Assembly (NCBI RefSeq): GCF_000026545.1
Contig: NC_011601.1
From: Escherichia coli O127:H6 str. E2348/69
Lineage (GTDB): Bacteria; Pseudomonadota; Gammaproteobacteria; Enterobacterales; Enterobacteriaceae
Strand: one strand, 5' to 3'
DNA length: 64,000 nucleotides
In this document: positions 1 to 31,224 of the stretch, one piece after another
How the letters are laid out: each line of letters starts with the position of its first letter
Position numbering within the stretch: the stretch's first letter is position 1
The notes under the pieces: model-generated
Database searches by the model: none
What the model saw: the letters and a program-made list of their open reading frames with translations, nothing else
Told to the model about the DNA's origin: nothing
Position numbers and translations under genes: made by a program

Positions 1-2375
1 GTAATATTAAGGAGCAGATTGCCGTTCTGAAGGGCAGTCTGCTGTTGTCACGTATCCTGTACCAGCAACAACAAACACTCCCCTCGGCAGATGAACTGGA
101 AAACATGACCAACCGCATCGCGGATTTGCGTCTCGAACAGTTTGAAGTCAACCAGCAGCGTGACGCGCTGTTCCAGAGCGATGCGTTCGTCAGCAAACTG
201 GAAGAAGGTCACACCAACGAAGTCAACAGCGAAGTTCACGATGCATTATTGCAAGTAGTTGATATGCGTCGCGAATTGCTGGATCAGCTTAACAAACAGT
301 TGGGTAACCAGCTGATGATGGCCATTAACCTGCAAATCAACCAGCAGCAGTTAATGAGTGTGTCGAAAAACCTGAAATCCATCCTGACGCAGCAAATTTT
401 TTGGGTGAACAGTAACCGCCCGATGGACTGGGACTGGATTAAAGCGTTCCCGCAAACGCTGAAAGATGAATTTAAGTCGATGAAAATCACGGTGAACTGG
501 GAAAAAGCCTGGCCCGCCGTATTCATCGCCTTCCTCGCTGGTTTGCCGCTGCTGTTGATTGCCGGGCTGATCCACTGGCGTCTGGGCTGGCTGAAAGCGT
601 ATCAACAAAAACTGGCTTCCGCTGTGGGTTCCCTGCGTAACGACAGCCAGCTCAACACACCAAAAGCGATCCTTATCGACCTGATCCGCGCACTGCCGGT
701 GTGCCTGATTATTCTCGCTGTCGGCCTGATTCTGCTGACTATGCAGCTCAATATCAGCGAGTTATTGTGGTCGTTCAGCAAAAAACTGGCGATTTTCTGG
801 CTGGTATTTGGCCTGTGCTGGAAAGTGCTGGAGAAAAATGGTGTTGCCGTGCGTCACTTTGGTATGCCGGAACAGCAGACCAGCCACTGGCGTCGGCAAA
901 TTGTCCGCATCAGCCTCGCGTTGCTGCCGATCCATTTCTGGTCTGTGGTGGCAGAACTCTCCCCGCTGCATTTGATGGATGATGTGCTGGGGCAGGCGAT
1001 GATTTTCTTCAACCTGCTGCTGATTGCCTTCCTGGTGTGGCCGATGTGCCGCGAAAGCTGGCGTGATAAAGAGTCGCACACCATGCGACTGGTCACCATT
1101 ACCGTGCTGTCGATTATCCCGATTGCGTTGATGGTGCTGACCGCCACGGGTTACTTCTACACCACGCTGCGCCTCTCCGGGCGTTGGATTGAAACCGTTT
1201 ATTTGGTGATCATCTGGAACCTGCTGTACCAGACGGTATTGCGCGGCTTAAGCGTAGCGGCGCGGCGTATCGCCTGGCGTCGTGCACTGGCGCGTCGGCA
1301 GAATCTGGTGAAAGAGGGCGCAGAAGGTGCCGAACCGCCGGAAGAACCCACCATTGCGCTGGAGCAGGTTAACCAGCAGACGCTGCGTATTACCATGTTG
1401 CTGATGTTTGCGCTGTTCGGTGTCATGTTCTGGGCAATTTGGTCTGATTTGATCACCGTGTTCAGCTATCTCGACAGCATTACGCTCTGGCATTACAACG
1501 CTACTGAAGCTGGTGCTGCGGTGGTGAAAAACGTCACCATGGGCAGTCTGTTGTTTGCGATTATCGCCTCAATGGTGGCCTGGGCGTTGATTCGCAACCT
1601 GCCTGGTTTGCTGGAAGTGCTGGTGCTCTCGCGACTGAATATGCGCCAGGGCGCGTCGTATGCCATTACTACCATCCTTAACTACATCATTATTGCCGTT
1701 GGTGCGATGACGGTGTTCGGATCGCTGGGCGTCTCGTGGGATAAACTCCAGTGGCTGGCGGCAGCATTATCCGTAGGTCTTGGTTTTGGTTTACAAGAGA
1801 TCTTCGGTAACTTCGTTTCCGGTTTGATCATTCTGTTCGAACGTCCGGTGCGCATAGGCGACACGGTAACCATTGGTAGCTTCTCGGGTACGGTCAGCAA
1901 GATCCGTATTCGTGCGACAACGATTACCGATTTCGATCGCAAAGAAGTGATTATCCCGAACAAAGCGTTTGTTACCGAGCGTCTGATCAACTGGTCGTTG
2001 ACTGACACGACTACGCGTCTGGTGATCCGTCTCGGCGTAGCCTATGGCTCCGATCTGGAAAAAGTGCGTAAAGTGTTGCTGAAGGCGGCGACTGAGCACC
2101 CAAGGGTGATGCACGAACCAATGCCGGAAGTCTTCTTTACGGCATTTGGTGCCAGCACGTTGGATCATGAGCTGCGTCTGTATGTGCGTGAACTGCGTGA
2201 CCGTAGCCGTACTGTCGATGAGCTGAACCGTACTATCGATCAGCTGTGCCGTGAAAACGACATCAACATTGCCTTTAACCAGCTTGAAGTGCATCTGCAC
2301 AACGAGAAGGGCGATGAAGTGACGGAAGTGAAACGCGACTACAAAGGCGACGATCCGACGCCAGCGGTAGGGTAA
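1..2375 (+). CDS. mscK: Mechanosensitive K+-regulated channel MscK (KefA), C-terminal part; 5' end lies upstream of the window
   Basis: ORF 45..2375 is open in frame back to position 1; multi-pass membrane region followed by MscS-like C-terminal domain; recognised from memory. Confidence 0.85.
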   Translation, partial: NIKEQIAVLKGSLLLSRILYQQQQTLPSADELENMTNRIADLRLEQFEVNQQRDALFQSDAFVSKLEEGHTNEVNSEVHDALLQVVDMRRELLDQLNKQLGNQLMMAINLQINQQQLMSVSKNLKSILTQQIFWVNSNRPMDWDWIKAFPQTLKDEFKSMKITVNWEKAWPAVFIAFLAGLPLLLIAGLIHWRLGWLKAYQQKLASAVGSLRNDSQLNTPKAILIDLIRALPVCLIILAVGLILLTMQLNISELLWSFSKKLAIFWLVFGLCWKVLEKNGVAVRHFGMPEQQTSHWRRQIVRISLALLPIHFWSVVAELSPLHLMDDVLGQAMIFFNLLLIAFLVWPMCRESWRDKESHTMRLVTITVLSIIPIALMVLTATGYFYTTLRLSGRWIETVYLVIIWNLLYQTVLRGLSVAARRIAWRRALARRQNLVKEGAEGAEPPEEPTIALEQVNQQTLRITMLLMFALFGVMFWAIWSDLITVFSYLDSITLWHYNATEAGAAVVKNVTMGSLLFAIIASMVAWALIRNLPGLLEVLVLSRLNMRQGASYAITTILNYIIIAVGAMTVFGSLGVSWDKLQWLAAALSVGLGFGLQEIFGNFVSGLIILFERPVRIGDTVTIGSFSGTVSKIRIRATTITDFDRKEVIIPNKAFVTERLINWSLTDTTTRLVIRLGVAYGSDLEKVRKVLLKAATEHPRVMHEPMPEVFFTAFGASTLDHELRLYVRELRDRSRTVDELNRTIDQLCRENDINIAFNQLEVHLHNEKGDEVTEVKRDYKGDDPTPAVG

Positions 2376-4568: not shown

Positions 4569-6500
4569 ATGAGTTATCAGGTCTTAGCCCGAAAATGGCG
4601 CCCACAAACCTTTGCTGACGTCGTCGGCCAGGAACATGTGCTGACCGCACTGGCGAACGGCTTGTCGTTAGGGCGTATTCATCATGCTTATCTTTTTTCC
4701 GGCACCCGTGGCGTCGGAAAAACCTCTATCGCCCGACTGTTGGCGAAGGGGCTAAACTGCGAAACCGGCATTACCGCGACGCCGTGCGGCGTGTGCGATA
4801 ACTGTCGTGAAATCGAGCAGGGGCGCTTTGTCGATCTGATTGAAATCGACGCCGCCTCGCGCACTAAAGTCGAAGATACCCGCGACCTGCTGGATAACGT
4901 TCAGTACGCTCCGGCGCGTGGTCGTTTCAAAGTTTATCTCATCGACGAAGTGCATATGCTGTCGCGTCACAGCTTTAACGCACTGTTAAAAACCCTTGAA
5001 GAGCCGCCAGAGCACGTTAAGTTTTTGCTGGCGACGACCGATCCGCAGAAATTGCCGGTGACGATTTTGTCACGCTGTCTGCAATTTCATCTCAAGGCGC
5101 TGGATGTCGAGCAAATTCGCCATCAGCTTGAGCACATCCTCAACGAAGAACATATCGCTCACGAGCCGCGGGCGCTGCAATTGTTGGCACGCGCCGCTGA
5201 AGGCAGCCTGCGAGATGCCTTAAGTCTGACCGACCAGGCGATTGCCAGCGGTGACGGCCAGGTTTCAACCCAGGCGGTCAGTGCGATGCTGGGTACGCTT
5301 GACGACGATCAGGCGTTATCGCTGGTTGAAGCGATGGTCGAGGCCAACGGCGAGCGCGTAATGGCGCTAATTAATGAAGCTGCTGCCCGTGGTATCGAGT
5401 GGGAAGCGTTGCTGGTGGAAATGCTCGGTCTGTTGCATCGTATTGCGATGGTACAACTTTCGCCTGCTGCTCTTGGCAACGACATGGCCGCCATTGAGCT
5501 GCGGATGCGTGAACTGGCGCGCACCATACCGCCGACGGATATTCAGCTTTACTATCAGACGCTGTTGATTGGTCGCAAAGAATTACCGTATGCGCCAGAC
5601 CGCCGTATGGGTGTTGAGATGACGCTGCTGCGCGCGCTGGCGTTCCATCCGCGTATGCCTCTGCCTGAGCCAGAAGTGCCACGCCAGTCCTTTGCGCCCG
5701 TTGCGCCAACGGCAGTAATGACGCCAACACAGGTGCCGCCGCAACCGCAATCAGCGCTGCAGCAGGCACCGACTGTACCGCTCCCGGAAACCACCAGCCA
5801 GGTGCTGGCGGCGCGCCAGCAGTTGCAGCGCGTGCAGGGAGCAACCAAAGCAAAAAAGAGTGAACCGGCAGCCGCTACCCGCGCGCGGCCGGTGAATAAC
5901 GCTGCGCTGGAAAGACTGGCTTCGGTCACCGATCGCGTTCAGGCGCGCCCGGTGCCATCGGCGCTGGAAAAAGCGCCAGCCAAAAAAGAAGCGTATCGCT
6001 GGAAGGCGACCACTCCAGTGATGCAGCAAAAAGAAGTGGTCGCCACGCCGAAGGCGCTGAAAAAAGCGCTGGAACATGAAAAAACGCCGGAACTGGCGGC
6101 GAAGCTGGCGGCAGAAGCCATTGAGCGCGACCCGTGGGCGGCTCAGGTGAGTCAACTTTCGCTACCAAAACTGGTCGAACAGGTGGCGTTAAATGCCTGG
6201 AAAGAGGAGAGCGACAACGCAGTATGTCTGCATTTGCGCTCCTCTCAGCGGCATTTGAACAACCGCGGCGCACAGCAAAAACTGGCTGAAGCGTTGAGCA
6301 CGTTAAAAGGTTCAACGGTTGAACTGACTATCGTTGAAGATGATAATCCCGCGGTGCGTACGCCGCTGGAATGGCGTCAGGCGATATACGAAGAAAAACT
6401 TGCGCAGGCGCGCGAGTCCATTATTGCGGATAATAATATTCAGACCCTGCGTCGATTCTTCGATGCGGAGCTGGATGAAGAAAGTATCCGCCCCATTTGA
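4569..6500 (+). CDS. dnaX: DNA polymerase III tau subunit (643 aa); gamma subunit made by -1 frameshift
   Basis: ORF track; AAA+ Walker A GTRGVGKT; slippery A AAA AAG at about 5852-5858 followed by a stem-loop. Confidence 0.95.
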   Translation: MSYQVLARKWRPQTFADVVGQEHVLTALANGLSLGRIHHAYLFSGTRGVGKTSIARLLAKGLNCETGITATPCGVCDNCREIEQGRFVDLIEIDAASRTKVEDTRDLLDNVQYAPARGRFKVYLIDEVHMLSRHSFNALLKTLEEPPEHVKFLLATTDPQKLPVTILSRCLQFHLKALDVEQIRHQLEHILNEEHIAHEPRALQLLARAAEGSLRDALSLTDQAIASGDGQVSTQAVSAMLGTLDDDQALSLVEAMVEANGERVMALINEAAARGIEWEALLVEMLGLLHRIAMVQLSPAALGNDMAAIELRMRELARTIPPTDIQLYYQTLLIGRKELPYAPDRRMGVEMTLLRALAFHPRMPLPEPEVPRQSFAPVAPTAVMTPTQVPPQPQSALQQAPTVPLPETTSQVLAARQQLQRVQGATKAKKSEPAAATRARPVNNAALERLASVTDRVQARPVPSALEKAPAKKEAYRWKATTPVMQQKEVVATPKALKKALEHEKTPELAAKLAAEAIERDPWAAQVSQLSLPKLVEQVALNAWKEESDNAVCLHLRSSQRHLNNRGAQQKLAEALSTLKGSTVELTIVEDDNPAVRTPLEWRQAIYEEKLAQARESIIADNNIQTLRRFFDAELDEESIRPI

Positions 6501-6537
6501 TCGTAAGCACAGCTTACGTTCGTCATCCTTAACGTGA

Positions 6538-6881
<344 letters not shown>

Positions 6882-6882
<1 letters not shown>

Positions 6883-7487
6883 TGCAAACCAGCCCGCTGT
6901 TAACACAGCTTATGGAAGCACTGCGCTGTCTGCCGGGCGTTGGCCCGAAGTCGGCGCAGCGTATGGCGTTCACGCTGCTTCAGCGCGATCGTAGCGGCGG
7001 GATGCGTCTGGCGCAGGCGCTCACCCGGGCGATGTCGGAAATCGGCCACTGCGCCGATTGCCGCACCTTCACCGAACAGGAAGTCTGTAACATCTGTTCG
7101 AATCCACGTCGTCAGGAAAACGGTCAAATCTGCGTGGTGGAGAGTCCGGCGGACATTTACGCCATTGAGCAGACGGGGCAGTTTTCAGGTCGTTATTTTG
7201 TGTTGATGGGGCATCTGTCACCGCTGGACGGCATCGGTCCTGATGATATCGGGCTTGATCGTCTGGAACAGCGTCTGGCAGAGGAAAAAATCACTGAAGT
7301 GATCCTCGCCACCAACCCCACGGTTGAAGGTGAAGCTACCGCTAACTACATTGCCGAGCTTTGTGCGCAATATGACGTGGAAGCCAGCCGAATCGCTCAT
7401 GGCGTACCGGTTGGCGGCGAACTGGAAATGGTCGATGGCACCACGCTGTCACACTCCCTTGCCGGGCGTCATAAGATTCGTTTTTAA
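6882..7487 (+). CDS. recR: Recombination protein RecR, 201 aa
   Basis: ORF track; C4 zinc finger [16 protein letters not shown] and Toprim region; start overlaps ybaB stop. Confidence 0.95.
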
Positions 7488-24696: not shown

Positions 24697-25989
24697 ATGA
24701 TGAACACGGAAGGTAATAACGGTAACAAACCCCTCGGTCTATGGAACGTCGTTTCCATCGGTATTGGGGCAATGGTGGGGGCGGGGATCTTCGCGCTGCT
24801 GGGTCAGGCTGCGTTGCTAATGGAAGCCTCGACCTGGGTCGCCTTTGCTTTTGGCGGTATTGTGGCGATGTTTTCCGGTTATGCCTATGCGCGTCTGGGG
24901 GCGAGCTATCCCAGCAATGGCGGTATTATCGACTTCTTTCGTCGCGGATTAGGCAACGGCGTCTTTTCGCTGGCGCTCTCGTTATTGTACCTGTTGACGC
25001 TGGCGGTGAGCATCGCCATGGTCGCCCGTGCTTTTGGCGCTTATGCCGTGCAGTTTTTGCATGAAGGCAGTCAGGAGGAGCACCTTATATTGCTCTACGC
25101 GTTGGGGAGCATTGCGGTGATGACGCTTTTCAACTCCTTAAGCAACCATGCAGTAGGGCGGCTGGAAGTGATCCTCGTCGGCATTAAAATGATGATTCTG
25201 TTATTGCTGATTATTGCCGGTGTCTGGTCGCTGCAACCGGCGCATATTTCCGTCTCTGCGCCCCCCAGCTCCGGTGCGTTCTTCTCCTGTATCGGGATAA
25301 CCTTCCTTGCCTATGCGGGCTTTGGCATGATGGCGAACGCGGCGGATAAAGTGAAAGATCCGCAGGTCATTATGCCACGGGCGTTTCTGGTGGCGATTGG
25401 CGTTACCACGTTGCTTTATATCTCGCTGGCGCTGGTTTTGCTTAGCGATGTATCGGCATTAGAGTTAGAAAAATATGCCGATACCGCCGTAGCGCAGGCT
25501 GCTTCTCCGCTGCTCGGGCATGTGGGTTATGTGATCGTCGTCATCGGCGCTTTACTGGCGACGGCTTCAGCCATCAACGCGAACCTGTTCGCCGTGTTTA
25601 ACATCATGGACAACATGGGCAGCGAACGCGAACTGCCGAAGCTAATGAATAAATCCCTGTGGCGGCAGAGTACCTGGGGCAACATCATTGTCGTGGTGTT
25701 GATTATGCTGATGACGGCGGCGCTGAATTTAGGCTCACTCGCCAGCGTTGCCAGCGCCACCTTTTTGATTTGCTATCTGGCGGTGTTTGTGGTGGCGATC
25801 CGCCTGCGTCATGATATTCACGCCTCGTTGCCGATTCTTATCGTAGGTACGTTGGTGATGTTGTTGGTGATCGTTGGCTTTATCTACAGTCTCTGGTCCC
25901 AGGGCAGCCGTGCGCTGATATGGATTATTGGCGCACTCTTACTCAGCCTTATTGTGGCAATGGTCATGAAGCGCAATAAAACCGTATAA
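24697..25989 (+). CDS. ybaT: APC-family amino-acid transporter YbaT, 430 aa
   Basis: ORF track; 12-helix permease; 3-bp gap after glsA. Confidence 0.85.
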   Translation: MMNTEGNNGNKPLGLWNVVSIGIGAMVGAGIFALLGQAALLMEASTWVAFAFGGIVAMFSGYAYARLGASYPSNGGIIDFFRRGLGNGVFSLALSLLYLLTLAVSIAMVARAFGAYAVQFLHEGSQEEHLILLYALGSIAVMTLFNSLSNHAVGRLEVILVGIKMMILLLLIIAGVWSLQPAHISVSAPPSSGAFFSCIGITFLAYAGFGMMANAADKVKDPQVIMPRAFLVAIGVTTLLYISLALVLLSDVSALELEKYADTAVAQAASPLLGHVGYVIVVIGALLATASAINANLFAVFNIMDNMGSERELPKLMNKSLWRQSTWGNIIVVVLIMLMTAALNLGSLASVASATFLICYLAVFVVAIRLRHDIHASLPILIVGTLVMLLVIVGFIYSLWSQGSRALIWIIGALLLSLIVAMVMKRNKTV

Positions 25990-26113
25990 CATCTCTCTGT
26001 GCGCAGTACTTCCTGTATTATTGTGGTGGCGGTCGATATTCGCACTGGCAAAAAAACGTGCTTGAATATTTGTTGAAACCCTTTAACAAAGCACAGGAGG
26101 CGTTGCGCGAACG

Positions 26114-26521
26114 ATGAACATTAGCGATGTAGCAAAAATTACCGGCCTGACCAGCAAAGCCATTCGCTTCTATGAAGAGAAGGGGCTGGTGACGCCGCCG
26201 ATGCGCAGCGAAAACGGTTATCGCACCTACACGCAGCAGCATCTCAACGAACTGACCTTACTGCGCCAGGCACGCCAGGTGGGCTTTAACCTGGAGGAGA
26301 GCGGCGAACTGGTGAATCTGTTTAACGATCCGCAGCGTCACAGCGCCGACGTCAAACGTCGTACGCTGGAGAAAGTAGCGGAGATCGAACAGCATATCGA
26401 AGAACTGCAATCCATGCGTAACCAGCTGCTGGCGCTGGCGAATGCCTGTCCCGGTGATGACAGCGCCGACTGCCCGATTATCGAAAATCTCTCCGGCTGC
26501 TGTCATCATCGGGCGGGGTGA
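26114..26521 (+). CDS. cueR: Copper-responsive MerR-family regulator CueR, 135 aa
   Basis: ORF track; N-terminal MerR HTH ([25 protein letters not shown]) and C-terminal CxxxxxxxC metal site. Confidence 0.95.
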
Positions 26522-27252
26522 TTAAGGCTTGCGAAAATAGTCGTCCATTATTTTCGTCAGCTCCGGACGTTCCCCGTCATCATTGATGGCAAAATCCAGA
26601 AAAAAAGCATCTGCTTGCGGCGTTCGGTTTTGCGCCATCAACCGGAAGGTGAGGGGGCCTGACCAGGTTTCGGATGGGCTGATGTGCTTATCAGGGCCGA
26701 AACTCTCCCATGCGTTGGGCGGTAATGTTTTGCACGCGGTGAGTTTTGGTATGTGGTATTGCAGCTCTGTTTTGTGCAGACATTCCCCGCCAGGAAATAC
26801 CAGGGTTTGTTGCTCATCATTAAAATGGGTTGCCGTGCTGAGCACCAGTGTTTTGAGCGGTCGCCCTTCCAGCGCGGCGGCAGTAGCCTTATGGTGTCCG
26901 TCGAGCAGAACGCAGAGATAGGAATCAGGGAGATACCAGGCCAGAGCGCGGGCGATTCCAGTTTTCGAGAGCAGACAAAAACCGGGCGGCTCCCTGTTCA
27001 TCCTCCGCAAAACCGCTGTAGACAAATTCCGCACAGGTAGGGCAATCAGCCTCGGACCAGAAACGTATTAACGGGACATCCTTGCCAGCAGAGCGAATGG
27101 ATAAGACCGTGCGAGTGCGGATCGTAAATCACACATTGACGCAGAAATCCTTTCCCGGACTTCACCGAAAAAATGACGCCCGCAGCGGTATTTTTCAGCA
27201 GACGTACTTCAGGTTTTCGAAAGGGGAAAAAGCATGGCCACTCCTTAGCCAA
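26522..27252 (-). pseudogene. Hypothetical accessory gene of about 240 codons, split by an apparent frameshift near 27046-27068
   Basis: Two adjacent minus-strand ORFs (27046..27252 and 26522..27034) in different frames; the downstream frame stays open up to 27067; no family confidently recognised; stop abuts cueR stop. Confidence 0.45.
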
Positions 27253-27323
27253 AATTTCAGTTCCCTGAACTGTGCCAGAAAATTACGCTGGTGACTATTG
27301 CTCTGGAAATGGAAACGGTGTCC

Positions 27324-27530
27324 TTACCCATTAATCCCCGTTTGCACCGAAAGAATATGCTGCAAACTTTCTACCATTATGCGCCCCGACTGAAATAAGC
27401 CTTCCTGGATTTCGTTGTTAACATTCACAGCGTGAACCAGGGAGGCTAATAACACCACTTGCAAGAAGGCAAAAATAAACGCACCGATAATCATAATATG
27501 CGTCAGGGGGATTTTCCTTTGCTCCTTCAT
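27324..27530 (-). CDS. Small single-pass membrane protein (68 aa), hypothetical
   Basis: ORF track; one hydrophobic helix IIGAFIFAFLQVVLLASLV; start overlaps the stop of the upstream lipoprotein gene by 4 bp. Confidence 0.5.
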   Translation of the reverse strand: MKEQRKIPLTHIMIIGAFIFAFLQVVLLASLVHAVNVNNEIQEGLFQSGRIMVESLQHILSVQTGING

Positions 27531-27949
27531 TTTAAATAACCCACAAACTGGCCTTCTTTCATTAAGGCGACTTTTCCTGTGTGATGATAAACAATGACAT
27601 TATACAGACCCGACTGATAAACAGTAGCATCTTTATTGTCTTCATCAATTACACATAATGAATCATTGAGATAAGCAAAGTTCTTACTGCTCATTCTAAA
27701 GGTCATGCCAAATCCTTTATAAATGGCTTTCTTTGCCGCCTGGGCATGTTGTGCGGCTTCTGCATTTTTAAATGCCTGCGCCTCGGATGCACTTAAAATA
27801 GCCGTCTGACGCTGTTGTTCTGCGAGGTAACAGGTGTCATGGCTGACGCCCTGCGCCTGGCAATCTGCGATGCGGGAAGTGGGTGAACTACAGCCAGCCA
27901 GTAATATAACCGCCAGCAGGGAAAACGATTTAATGGAGCTATTCATCAT
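27527..27949 (-). CDS. Predicted lipoprotein (140 aa), hypothetical
   Basis: ORF track; signal peptide with lipobox LLAGC followed by S at +2; not a K-12 core protein I recognise. Confidence 0.6.
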   Translation of the reverse strand: MMNSSIKSFSLLAVILLAGCSSPTSRIADCQAQGVSHDTCYLAEQQRQTAILSASEAQAFKNAEAAQHAQAAKKAIYKGFGMTFRMSSKNFAYLNDSLCVIDEDNKDATVYQSGLYNVIVYHHTGKVALMKEGQFVGYLK

Positions 27950-28002
27950 TGTTAACCTTAAATAATGTGCGGAAAATTGCGAATAAGAAATTGCTGTTAA
28001 AA

Positions 28003-29019
28003 TTAGAACGAATATCCCACGCCGACACCCGCACCGAAATCAGATTGTGTATCCGCAGAAATACCTGCTTTAAGTACCGTATGCGTTCCGGCATTAAAAG
28101 ATGTTCCGACAGACACCGCAGATTCACCGTTAAAGGTTCCCGCTCCCGCTGAGACCATCATCAAGTCACCGGTTTTCACCTGTGGTTGTGAGGCGATAGC
28201 GATGGCAGATGCAGTTCCCGCATTGGCTTCTTTACGATTGTCCTCAACTTCGTTTTTTAGCGAACTGAAATGGTTATTGAGCGTGTTAATTTGCTGGCTG
28301 TTATCTGCAACCCGTTTTTGGGTGTTGGTTAACTGTTGCTGCGTTTGTGCGGAATCTTGTCTCAGACTTTCAATTTGCTCATGTGCCTGGACAGACTTCT
28401 GCGCCAGACTTTGCATTTGTTTATCGTATTGAGCCCTTTCTTTTTGCTGTTGTGCTGCCACATCGGTTGTCAGTGCATTCATTTTCTGCCCTTGTTCCGT
28501 GGTAGTGCGCTGATTAGCCTCATTTTGAGCCGCCAGCCTGGCATTAATCATCTCCTGATAATGCGCGGTATTTTGCGTATCTCCAGTCGCGGCGAGCGTT
28601 TTTTGTGTGGCTACGATCTGCGCCTGTTGCTCTGTAATTTGCGTTTGCTGGGCATCAGTTACCGTAGACTGTCGGGCGTTGATCATGCTCTGATAACGGG
28701 CGGTTGTCTGTACATCACCTGTAGCGGCAACGGTTTTTTGTCCTGCGTCAGGATCTGTCTGGACAGGGGGAGTCTGAGTGGTATCAGGTGTTTCAGAAGG
28801 GATGTAGTGATGTTCAGTCAAATAGGTATATGCAGCGGGGCTGTTGTCGGTGCGTTCTAAAAAGCGGGTAATCTTCTGCTCAATCTCCGATTGCGACATG
28901 CCCGAGTTAATGGCTGAAAGCTCTGTTGCCGCCGCTTCAATGGTATCACCAGCTAAAACAAAAGGGCTGGATGTTGCTGAAATTATGAGTGCCAGTAAAG
29001 CTACGTTTACAGTTTTCAT
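28003..29019 (-). CDS. Short trimeric-autotransporter-like protein with YadA-type C-terminal membrane anchor (338 aa)
   Basis: ORF track; N-terminal signal peptide, Q/T/A-rich coiled-coil repeats, C-terminus ...GESAVSVGTSFNAG...GAGVGVGYSF resembling the YadA anchor and ending in an aromatic residue. Confidence 0.7.
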   Translation of the reverse strand: MKTVNVALLALIISATSSPFVLAGDTIEAAATELSAINSGMSQSEIEQKITRFLERTDNSPAAYTYLTEHHYIPSETPDTTQTPPVQTDPDAGQKTVAATGDVQTTARYQSMINARQSTVTDAQQTQITEQQAQIVATQKTLAATGDTQNTAHYQEMINARLAAQNEANQRTTTEQGQKMNALTTDVAAQQQKERAQYDKQMQSLAQKSVQAHEQIESLRQDSAQTQQQLTNTQKRVADNSQQINTLNNHFSSLKNEVEDNRKEANAGTASAIAIASQPQVKTGDLMMVSAGAGTFNGESAVSVGTSFNAGTHTVLKAGISADTQSDFGAGVGVGYSF

Positions 29020-29386
29020 TCATTTTCTCTCGATCAAAATAAGTTGCATTAATGTTTCTATAAGAAACAAATAATATTGTTATTAAGAAATAAAATACGT
29101 TGCAATATGATCGAAATCTACGCCGCCATTTGTGTGATGTAAAGCGCATTTTTGTCTGTTGTAAGCGTAAATATCACCAATAAGAAACAAAAAATGTTTC
29201 TTTTATAAATTAAAAAGGAAAACATTTCGTGCTCTTTCAATGTAAAAAAGAGTAAAGACTTGTTTTGATAAGCGAAATAAATTCTGTTTCTGGACTAAAC
29301 GTGAACCGGTTCCTGATGTGTGCTAAAATGCGTTTCTTTGATAAATCTCAATTTTTAAGAGGTTTACGCCAGGCAGGAACATTTAA

Positions 29387-29749
29387 ATGAATGAATTTGA
29401 GAAGATTTTTAATGAAATGAATCTGGACCGGGCATTGCTACCGATCCTTTTTCGTTCGAACCGGTCAACAGTGTGGAAGTATTTAAGCGGCGATAGTACG
29501 GCTCCTGCCTCAGCTATGTCACTGATTATGCTGTTGCAGTTAATCCAGAAACGAAACCCCGATCTATTAGCCGAATGGTTAACGCTTTCTGATTTCACCA
29601 TTCCGCCAGAAGTTTACCTGGACCAGCCTGATTACTGGAAAGGGTGGGTGTATACCCAACACAAGGTCAATAAAAACGTCCTGGAATATCTAAAAAAACA
29701 TTATCCGGATGAAGACCAAAAAAGTATGGGTAAAGGCCGGGAAGAGTAA
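29387..29749 (+). CDS. Putative HTH DNA-binding regulator (120 aa), hypothetical
   Basis: ORF track; HTH-like segment RSNRSTVWKYLSGDSTAP; divergent from the autotransporter-like gene across a 370-bp AT-rich region. Confidence 0.45.
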   Translation: MNEFEKIFNEMNLDRALLPILFRSNRSTVWKYLSGDSTAPASAMSLIMLLQLIQKRNPDLLAEWLTLSDFTIPPEVYLDQPDYWKGWVYTQHKVNKNVLEYLKKHYPDEDQKSMGKGREE

Positions 29750-29754
29750 TTTTG

Positions 29755-29850
29755 CCTCTACTCGGCTATATGCCGGATGCGGCGCAAGCGCCTTATCTGG
29801 CCTACGATTCGGGCATATTTTGTAGGCATGATAAGACGCGCCAGCGTCGC
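29755..29850. repeat. REP/BIME elements at the island-ybbJ junction
   Basis: gccggatgcggcgcaagcgccttatctggcctac and gcgacgctggcgcgtcttatcatgcctac (revcomp) between 29749 and the ybbJ stop. Confidence 0.65.
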
Positions 29851-29851
29851 A

Positions 29852-30310
29852 TCAGGCGATGACCGCACGGATAATCAGCGTTATTCCTTCTATCGCAATC
29901 ACCTCAACATGCGTACCAGCGCCGAGATCCTCGCTGGCGCTGACAGGCCATGAACTGTCACCGACGCGCATATGACCGCGCCCGTTGACCAGCGGAGATT
30001 CCAGAACAAAACGTTGGCCAATCAACTGCTGCCCGCGCTGGTTTAAATGACTGTCGCTGTGCTTTTGTTCGCGCACCCGCCGCGACAACCATTTCCACCA
30101 CAGCCAGGCGGCGAGCAGCGTCAGGACGGCAAACATTACCCCTTGCCACTCCCAACCCAGCGGCAGCAACCAGACCACCAGACCGGTAATCACCGCTGCC
30201 ACGCCGCTCCACAACAGATAACCATTGCCGCCCAACATCTCGGCTGCCAGCAGCAAACCGCCGAGACTTAGCCAGAAAATATGTTGATGGACGACCATTA
30301 ACTCCATCAT
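29852..30310 (-). CDS. ybbJ: NfeD-like inner membrane protein YbbJ, 152 aa
   Basis: ORF track; overlaps qmcA stop; conserved NfeD-SPFH pair. Confidence 0.85.
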
Positions 30311-31224
30311 GGCTGAGTCCGTTTGTTGGCGCTGTCTTTCACCAGCTCAGCAATCCCGGCAATCGACCCCATCAGGCTGCTGGCCTCTAATGGCATCATC
30401 ACCACTTTGCTGTTACTGGACGAACCGATCTGCTGTAACGCTTCGGTGTATTTCTGTGCGACGAAGTAGTTCACCGCCTGAATATCGCCGGAGGCGATGG
30501 CTTCAGACACCATTTTGGTGGCGCGGGCTTCTGCTTCAGCGGAACGTTCACGCGCTTCAGCCTGTAAAAACGCCGACTGACGTTCGCCTTCCGCTTTCAG
30601 GATTTGTGACTGTTTTTCACCTTCGGCTTTGAGGATTTCCGCCTGACGGATCCCTTCCGCTTCAAGGATGTAAGCGCGTTTGGTACGTTCCGCTTTCATC
30701 TGCGCGTTCATTGAAGAGATAAGCTCTGCGGGCGGGCGCACATCACGAATTTCAATACGGGTGACTTTAATCCCCCACGGGTTGGTGGCCTCATCGACAA
30801 TATGCAGCAGACGCGAGTTAATGCTGTCGCGCTGAGAGAGCATTTCATCAAGTTCCATTGAACCCAGCACGGTACGGATGTTAGTCATAGTCAGATTGAT
30901 GATTGCCAGCTCCAGATTGCTGACTTCATAAGCCGCGCGCGGCGCGTCAATTACCTGAATAAAGCACACGGCGTCGATGGTAACGTTGGCGTTATCTTTC
31001 GAGATAACTTCCTGGGAAGGGATGTCGAGCACTTGCTCCATCATATTGATCTTGCGACCAATGCGATCCATAAAGGGCACCACCAGGCTTAGACCTGGCT
31101 GTAACGTTTTGGTATAGCGACCAAAGCGTTCTACCGTCCATTGATAGCCCTGCGGCACGATTTTGACGCCCGCGCCGACAATGACCAGCGCGACAAAAAT
31201 GAGAATCGGGATAAAGATAATCAT
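30307..31224 (-). CDS. qmcA: SPFH/band-7 (stomatin-like) protein QmcA (YbbK), 305 aa
   Basis: ORF track; SPFH domain plus KAEGE repeat tail. Confidence 0.9.

Follow-up and report, generated by a model that had tools for sequence, protein, structure and literature searches.

Ordinary gene decay in Escherichia coli pathotypes leaves one-base slips in short runs, deletions between short direct repeats, and combinations of lesions that are specific to lineages. Genes with programmed frameshifts, of the prfB and dnaX type, present two adjacent open reading frames (ORFs) in different frames on one strand. The locus described here lies beside cueR in a 64,000-nt stretch of the E. coli O127:H6 E2348/69 chromosome ("the window"). 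It shares the paired ORFs with prfB and dnaX, but unlike them it has no conserved shift site, its homologues are unshifted, and it carries large deletions in addition. Set against ordinary E. coli gene decay it likewise shows each of the three hallmarks and nothing unusual, apart from the detail that one deletion, of 287 nt, has two crossover points within the same 15-nt repeat (ST131 versus E2348/69). The RefSeq/PGAP entry BQ9544_RS02350 (NZ_LT827011.1) describes the same locus with the same call, a frameshifted hypothetical gene beside cueR, and gives no ancestral length, lesion list, family or fold.

Alignment to intact alleles indicates that the segment at 26522..27235 on the minus strand is very probably a non-functional, multiply damaged pseudogene, whose parent is a 407-codon chromosomal gene found between ybbJ and cueR in other Escherichia and in other enterobacteria. 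The feature is an ordinary pseudogene that RefSeq already annotates (26522..27201, "hypothetical protein; frameshifted"), and the pseudogene call itself is not new. What is added to the annotation is the set of four lesions, the layout over three frames, the 407-codon ancestor, its shared position across genera and its predicted fold. Coordinates are collected in Table 1.

Table 1. Features of the cueR-ybbJ interval (window coordinates) and predicted domains of the intact protein (residue numbers).
Feature	Position	Strand	Description and basis
cueR, convergent neighbour	26114..26521	+	TGA stop directly before pseudogene stop; ORF list, RefSeq
Whole pseudogene remnant	26522..27235	-	714 nt, native ATG 27235..27233 to TAA 26524..26522; alignment A1
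Upstream ORF	27046..27252	-	68 aa, TTG start; ORF list
Downstream ORF	26522..27034	-	170 aa, GTG start, frame differs from 27046..27252; ORF list
Shine-Dalgarno AAGGAG, kept	27241..27246	-	5 nt before native ATG; conserved in 5/5 A1 alleles
Lesion 1, +1 in pyrimidine tract after ATG	27223..27232	-	C T5 C4 in window; A1
Lesion 2, extra A at ancestral codon 51	27082..27083	-	GGCAGG to GGCAAGG; A1 column 287
Lesion 3, 287-nt deletion, junction 26955/26954	26954..26955	-	about ancestral codons 94-189; A1 columns 416-702
Lesion 4, 225-nt deletion, junction 26659/26658	26658..26659	-	about ancestral codons 288-362; A1 columns 999-1223
Frame-1 segment	27084..27222	-	about ancestral codons 4-50, FRKPEVRLLKNT...SLCW, and start of Q51
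Frame-2 segment	26955..27080	-	ancestral codons 52-93, DVPLIRFWSEADCPTCAEFVYSGFAEDEQGAARFLSALENWN, with CPTC motif; translation
Frame-3 segment a	26660..26954	-	about ancestral codons 190-287, ARALAWYLPDSYLCVLLDGHHKATAAAL...SETWS, DGHHK kept
Frame-3 segment b	26522..26658	-	ancestral codons 363-407 and stop, PLTFRLMAQNRTPQADAFFLDFAINDDGERPELTKIMDDYFRKP*
Overlapping small ORFs	27324..27530, 27527..27949		annotated lipoprotein in RM9872
YadA C-terminal-domain protein gene	28003..29019		338 aa in window, 436 aa in RM9872-C1
N-terminal beta domain	residues 9-73		predicted; CPTC at 64-67; AlphaFold2
Central mixed alpha/beta domain	about residues 96-245		predicted; AlphaFold2
C-terminal all-helical domain	residues 268-405		predicted; AlphaFold2

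The gene order around the pseudogene is copA, glsA, ybaT, cueR, pseudogene, two small hypothetical genes, a gene for a YadA C-terminal-domain protein, a hypothetical gene, ybbJ and qmcA. The sequence-level description in the original prediction was borne out: the ORF list holds the two minus-strand ORFs in different frames, and translation of 26522-27070 places the first in-frame stop upstream of the downstream ORF at 27068-27070, so that its frame is open to 27067. The stop was also said to abut that of cueR; since cueR ends at 26521 on the plus strand and the minus-strand TAA begins at 26522, the two stop codons are directly adjacent. The TTG start at 27252 lies 5' of the retained Shine-Dalgarno sequence and reads across it. 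An Rfam scan of 25900-30400 gave no RNA match to the pseudogene, and only sub-threshold REP/naRNA4 matches near ybbJ; a promoter and terminator scan was uninformative for the remnant.

Lesion positions were read from a five-way nucleotide alignment (A1) of the E2348/69, RM9872-C1, HM670, ST131 and JA0072 alleles and converted to window coordinates. With the intact RM9872-C1 and HM670 alleles as reference, the parent is a gene of 1224 nt and 407 codons, and the window copy differs from it by two +1 insertions and deletions of 287 nt and 225 nt (net -510 nt). Outside these lesions there are 5 substitutions in 712 aligned nt relative to HM670. The start tract reads C T5 C3 in RM9872, T4 C5 in HM670 and T3 C5 in ST131; because of the extra base in the window's tract, the native ATG now translates to MLFPLSKT*, 8 residues. 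After the extra A of the second lesion, which is present in the JA0072 allele and absent from that of ST131, frame 1 no longer follows the ancestral reading, until it stops at 27046. The ends of the 287-nt deletion are, in intact genes, the 15-nt imperfect direct repeats CGCCCGTGGTCTGGC and CGCCCGCGCTCTGGC. This deletion takes out the invariant YPTDGNGHFFW and PxQ motifs (Y118, G130, F135 and Q171 in a protein alignment of 46 family members, A2) and would cost the N-terminal half of a predicted ParB/Srx domain, including those 4 invariant residues. The 225-nt deletion, whose length is divisible by three, would cost the first helices of a predicted C-terminal helical repeat domain.

Two +1 slips in short runs, a repeat-flanked deletion of 287 nt and a further deletion of 225 nt have scattered the ancestral codons over three frames, in which roughly 57% of them survive. 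The true coding portion of the upstream ORF is the frame-1 segment. The frame-2 segment lies outside both of the ORFs originally proposed, and the downstream ORF opens with ~27 codons (27034..26955) that are out of frame and non-ancestral. Because the ancestral codons lie in three frames, joining the two listed ORFs, which one base change could do, gives a chimera and not the ancestral protein. Judged from its sequence, the remnant is unable to encode the ancestral function, because of the 287-nt and 225-nt deletions and because the start-proximal +1 ends translation after 8 codons. A fragment may still be expressed at a low level, for example the predicted 170-aa ORF that keeps DGHHK.

Among 5426 complete E. 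coli genomes, 965 carry the gene or its remnant. When the intact gene served as the query, 271 of the 965 carriers (~28%) matched over at least 80% of its 1224 nt, Nissle 1917, 'Seattle 1946' and O145:H28 strains among them. RM9872-C1 and HM670 hold an uninterrupted 1224-nt CDS of 407 codons that ends in the same way against cueR, and RefSeq carries the intact forms as 'hypothetical protein' (WP_000492611.1, the protein of Nissle 1917, and WP_000898667.1); in the RefSeq annotations the gene is an intact 407-aa CDS in these two strains and frameshifted in E2348/69, ST131 and JA0072. About 72% of the complete genomes that carry the locus, E2348/69, ST131 and LF82 among them, have deleted versions. 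The shares of the allele classes are approximate, as they come from an evenly spaced sample of the 965 matches: the ST131 class (711 nt) accounts for ~57% of carriers, the E2348/69 class (712-714 nt) for ~10%, and the LF82/JA0072 class (79% coverage, with only the extra A and the 287-nt deletion) for ~5%. A remnant of the same 714-nt span occurs in other strains, and 89 genomes match it at 99% or higher.

The lesions are spread as a mosaic across lineages in A1. The ST131 allele has a -1 in the start tract, lacks the extra A and has both deletions (net -513 nt). At the 287-nt junction, the repeat copy left in ST131 is the upstream one (GTGG) and that left in E2348/69 and JA0072 is the downstream one (GCGC), which indicates two crossover points within the same repeat. 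Such a mosaic fits recurrent deletion, recombination between alleles, or both.

Of the explanations offered in the original prediction, a pseudogene was the right one, as the four lesions in A1 show, though the proposed gene of about 240 codons was not: that figure, like the 731-nt span of the ORF pair (27252..26522), measures the remnant only. The accompanying idea, that one indel near 27046-27068 separates the ORFs and that its removal would restore the gene, is suggested by neighbouring same-strand ORFs with overlapping open frames, and an extra A does occur close by. It lies at 27082/27083, however, ~15 nt outside the proposed zone, and is one of four lesions, the start-proximal +1 and the two deletions being the others. 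As the orthologues have 407 codons, the stretch 27034..26955 is out of frame with respect to the ancestor, and the protein search gave no intact ~240-codon homologue collinear with the fused ORF, a single frameshift is highly improbable. It is similarly hard to credit that the two ORFs are genuine separate genes, although each has a possible start (TTG, GTG) and more than 60 codons. The alignment to intact homologues, which had been proposed as a check, places both fragments collinearly on one 407-aa protein, and since both match that single family they are not chance ORFs; moreover the TTG start lacks a Shine-Dalgarno sequence, its reading frame running across the one that serves the native ATG, and the GTG ORF begins with out-of-frame sequence.

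A sequencing or assembly error, in an organism whose gene is really whole, is plausible for the one-base lesions when these are taken by themselves, because they fall in short runs (the T5 C4 tract and an AA pair) that can be miscalled. However, the three chromosome records of E. coli O127:H6 E2348/69 are each 100% identical to the window over the pseudogene region and the allele class recurs in other strains, which rules against an error; in any case, errors in base calling do not account for gaps of 287 nt and 225 nt, and these deletions recur in the ST131 and LF82-type alleles. We regard this explanation as having next to no probability. Programmed frameshifting, or phase variation in the pyrimidine tract, would yield a functional product, and in its favour the tract length varies by allele (10, 9, 9 and 8 nt) and the lesions add up to a multiple of three in E2348/69 and in ST131 alike. 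Yet intact homologues in all lineages are single uninterrupted ORFs, which argues against a programmed shift, GGCAAGG is no slippery heptamer, and its extra A is missing from intact alleles. For phase-variable switching, runs of at most five bases are short, and the large deletions cannot be reversed and have taken invariant residues with them, so that neither mechanism has more than a very slight chance of applying here. The suggestion that a VFPGGE motif relates the product to PlsC-type acyltransferases (PF01553), with their FPEGTR motif, derives from the visual resemblance of one hexapeptide. VFPGGE falls in a variable stretch of A2 and is not conserved in the family, none of the 46 members has an acyltransferase match, the intact protein matches 0 Pfam families at E ≤ 10, and the structural matches are ParB/Srx proteins and alpha-solenoids with no acyltransferases among them; a PlsC relationship can be given almost no credence. 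The reading that we prefer is that of a multiply damaged pseudogene derived from the 407-codon gene.

Both fragments match a single family of 407-aa proteins (best E 1.5e-284). In a search of ~5.8 billion proteins the family comprised 117 clusters, typically of 400-460 aa at full length, from Enterobacteriaceae and Clostridia. Identities are 88-90% in E. albertii, ~55% in Salmonella, 48% in Superficieibacter, and 23-36% in Clostridia and in Ruminococcus-type metagenomes. Intact members had no match in Pfam, NCBIfam, PADLOC or PHROGs, and among the 117 clusters the only precomputed Pfam domain was PF02527, on a 290-aa fragment (P0013). The residues invariant in A2 are P54, C64 and T66 (CPTC), Y118, G130 and F135 (YPTDGNGHFFW), Q171, and D207-G208-H209-H210 (LLDGHHKA.AAA), the residue after DGHH being K in most members and R in a few. 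Two intact E. coli alleles differ at 43 synonymous and 31 non-synonymous sites (dN/dS 0.19), and at the level of substitutions the intact gene is evidently under purifying selection.

The order ybbJ (NfeD), 407-codon gene, cueR is found in E. albertii, in a divergent Escherichia, in Superficieibacter electus and in another metagenome-assembled contig; in the last two the gene overlaps the 3' end of cueR by 4 nt. This shared position across lineages gives the gene the look of a long-standing resident and not of a recent island, and suggests that the ybbJ-cueR site has probably been its home for a long time. The Salmonella and Firmicute copies are not near cueR. The Salmonella enterica orthologue (contig 6001..7239, ~55% identity, cluster of 2700) has a rihA-like nucleoside hydrolase gene on one side and an Hsp70-family (HscC-like) gene on the other, the latter followed by pairs of DjlB_C/DUF1266 genes. 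The Firmicute surroundings are mutually unrelated, and no partner gene is common to the Firmicute and Salmonella loci. An origin in a mobile element or a defence system was considered and rejected: the phage collection held no match to the family, the plasmid collection held a single one, on a 2.1-Mb Fusobacterium replicon, so that the family is effectively absent from it, and there is no shared partner gene.

AlphaFold2, run with the family alignment, gave a confident model of the intact protein (pLDDT 86, pTM 0.86) with the three domains listed in Table 1. In a comparison with PDB40 the predicted central domain superposes on structures of the ParB/Srx fold and on almost nothing else, and it would accordingly be modelled as a ParB/sulfiredoxin fold; the predicted C-terminus matches alpha-solenoids and resembles a HEAT-like repeat. 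Foldseek against the PDB returned nothing significant, with Noc and SerK at the head of the list; searching PDB chains, by sequence or by profile, produced only noise in the form of weak alphaRep and troponin matches, with no ParB/Srx protein in the profile search; and none of the 46 members matched PF02195 at E ≤ 1. DGHH[K/R] sits where predicted strand 202-207 meets helix 209-218, a strand-to-helix junction that would correspond to the site of ParB's phosphate-binding GxxR box. When the domain alignment was compared with K-12 YbdM by hhalign, LLDGHHKA fell on IVDGFHRH, although not significantly (E 0.074).

In its fold the predicted central domain resembles sulfiredoxin, the free serine kinases SerK and SbnI, and the CTP-binding proteins KorB, PadC and ParB. 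The family differs from ParB/Srx proteins in that it has no PF02195 match, no HTH or other DNA-binding domain and no ParA partner. Its architecture is its own, with a CPTC beta domain, an insertion bearing YPTDGNGHFFW, a HEAT-like C-terminus, and mostly K in place of R. PF02195 was the search model of a 2025 ParB-CTPase fold survey (PMC12704722), which probably missed the family, since PF02195 does not match it.

If the model is correct, the intact protein would most likely bind a nucleotide and act as a phosphotransferase or as a nucleotide-dependent switch on a protein partner. A link to copper, by way of CPTC and the cueR/copA neighbourhood, is speculation. A wider proposal can be framed, and we consider it unlikely, if less so than any of the rivals above: the family would form a ParB/Srx-fold branch not yet described (CPTC, YPTDGNGHFFW, DGHH[K/R], HEAT-like repeat), a nucleotide-dependent enzyme or switch that several enterobacterial lineages have retained beside cueR/copA, with its CxxC as a possible connection to thiol or copper stress, and would be repeatedly inactivated in phylogroup-B2-type pathogens (ST131, EPEC E2348/69, LF82), in part by recurrent deletion at the 15-nt repeat, because its loss was favoured.

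The window feature itself carries little weight, being one more decaying gene in pathogenic E. coli. It does illustrate that adjacent ORFs in different frames can conceal far larger damage, here an ancestor 70% longer with its codons in three frames, and annotators should for this reason compare such pairs with intact orthologues before calling a simple frameshift. The parent is a conserved and selected family with no Pfam or NCBIfam match and with a predicted ParB/Srx-type fold that PF02195 surveys would miss. As an uncharacterised family it is only a modest lead; since the gene is intact in Nissle 1917 and deleted in ST131, E2348/69 and LF82, it is a cheap candidate for a first round of biochemistry.

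The surroundings of the pseudogene also vary among strains. K-12 lacks the 407-codon gene entirely, and its ybbJ stop abuts the cueR stop (TGA, then TTAAG...); in a comparison of K-12 MG1655 1899..1910 with window 26519..26530 the cueR stop junction is at the same position, and the last few ybbJ codons of K-12 are unlike those of the E2348/69-type ybbJ. The arrangement suggests that the K-12 loss had its endpoints at or near both stop codons, and a REP-like sequence (GATAAGACG) was perhaps involved. REP-type palindromic elements lie beside the 3' end of ybbJ at window 29735..29886, where naRNA4 Rfam matches reach 29-32 bits, below the gathering score of 59.5. Between the pseudogene and ybbJ is a variable segment, window 27324..29750, which is missing from HM670 and ST131 and which holds, besides the small ORFs and the YadA C-terminal-domain gene, a hypothetical gene of 120 aa.

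On the other side of cueR, window 26020..26117 (plus strand), ~85-98 nt directly 5' of the gene, is the 3' remnant of a gene for an HlyD-family type I secretion adaptor. RM9872-C1 has an intact copy, located after a gene for a type I secretion permease/ATPase and sharing 4 nt with the start of cueR. One nucleotide is missing from an A run in the remnant, which K-12 carries as well; together with the 407-codon pseudogene, this remnant leaves gene wreckage on both flanks of cueR.
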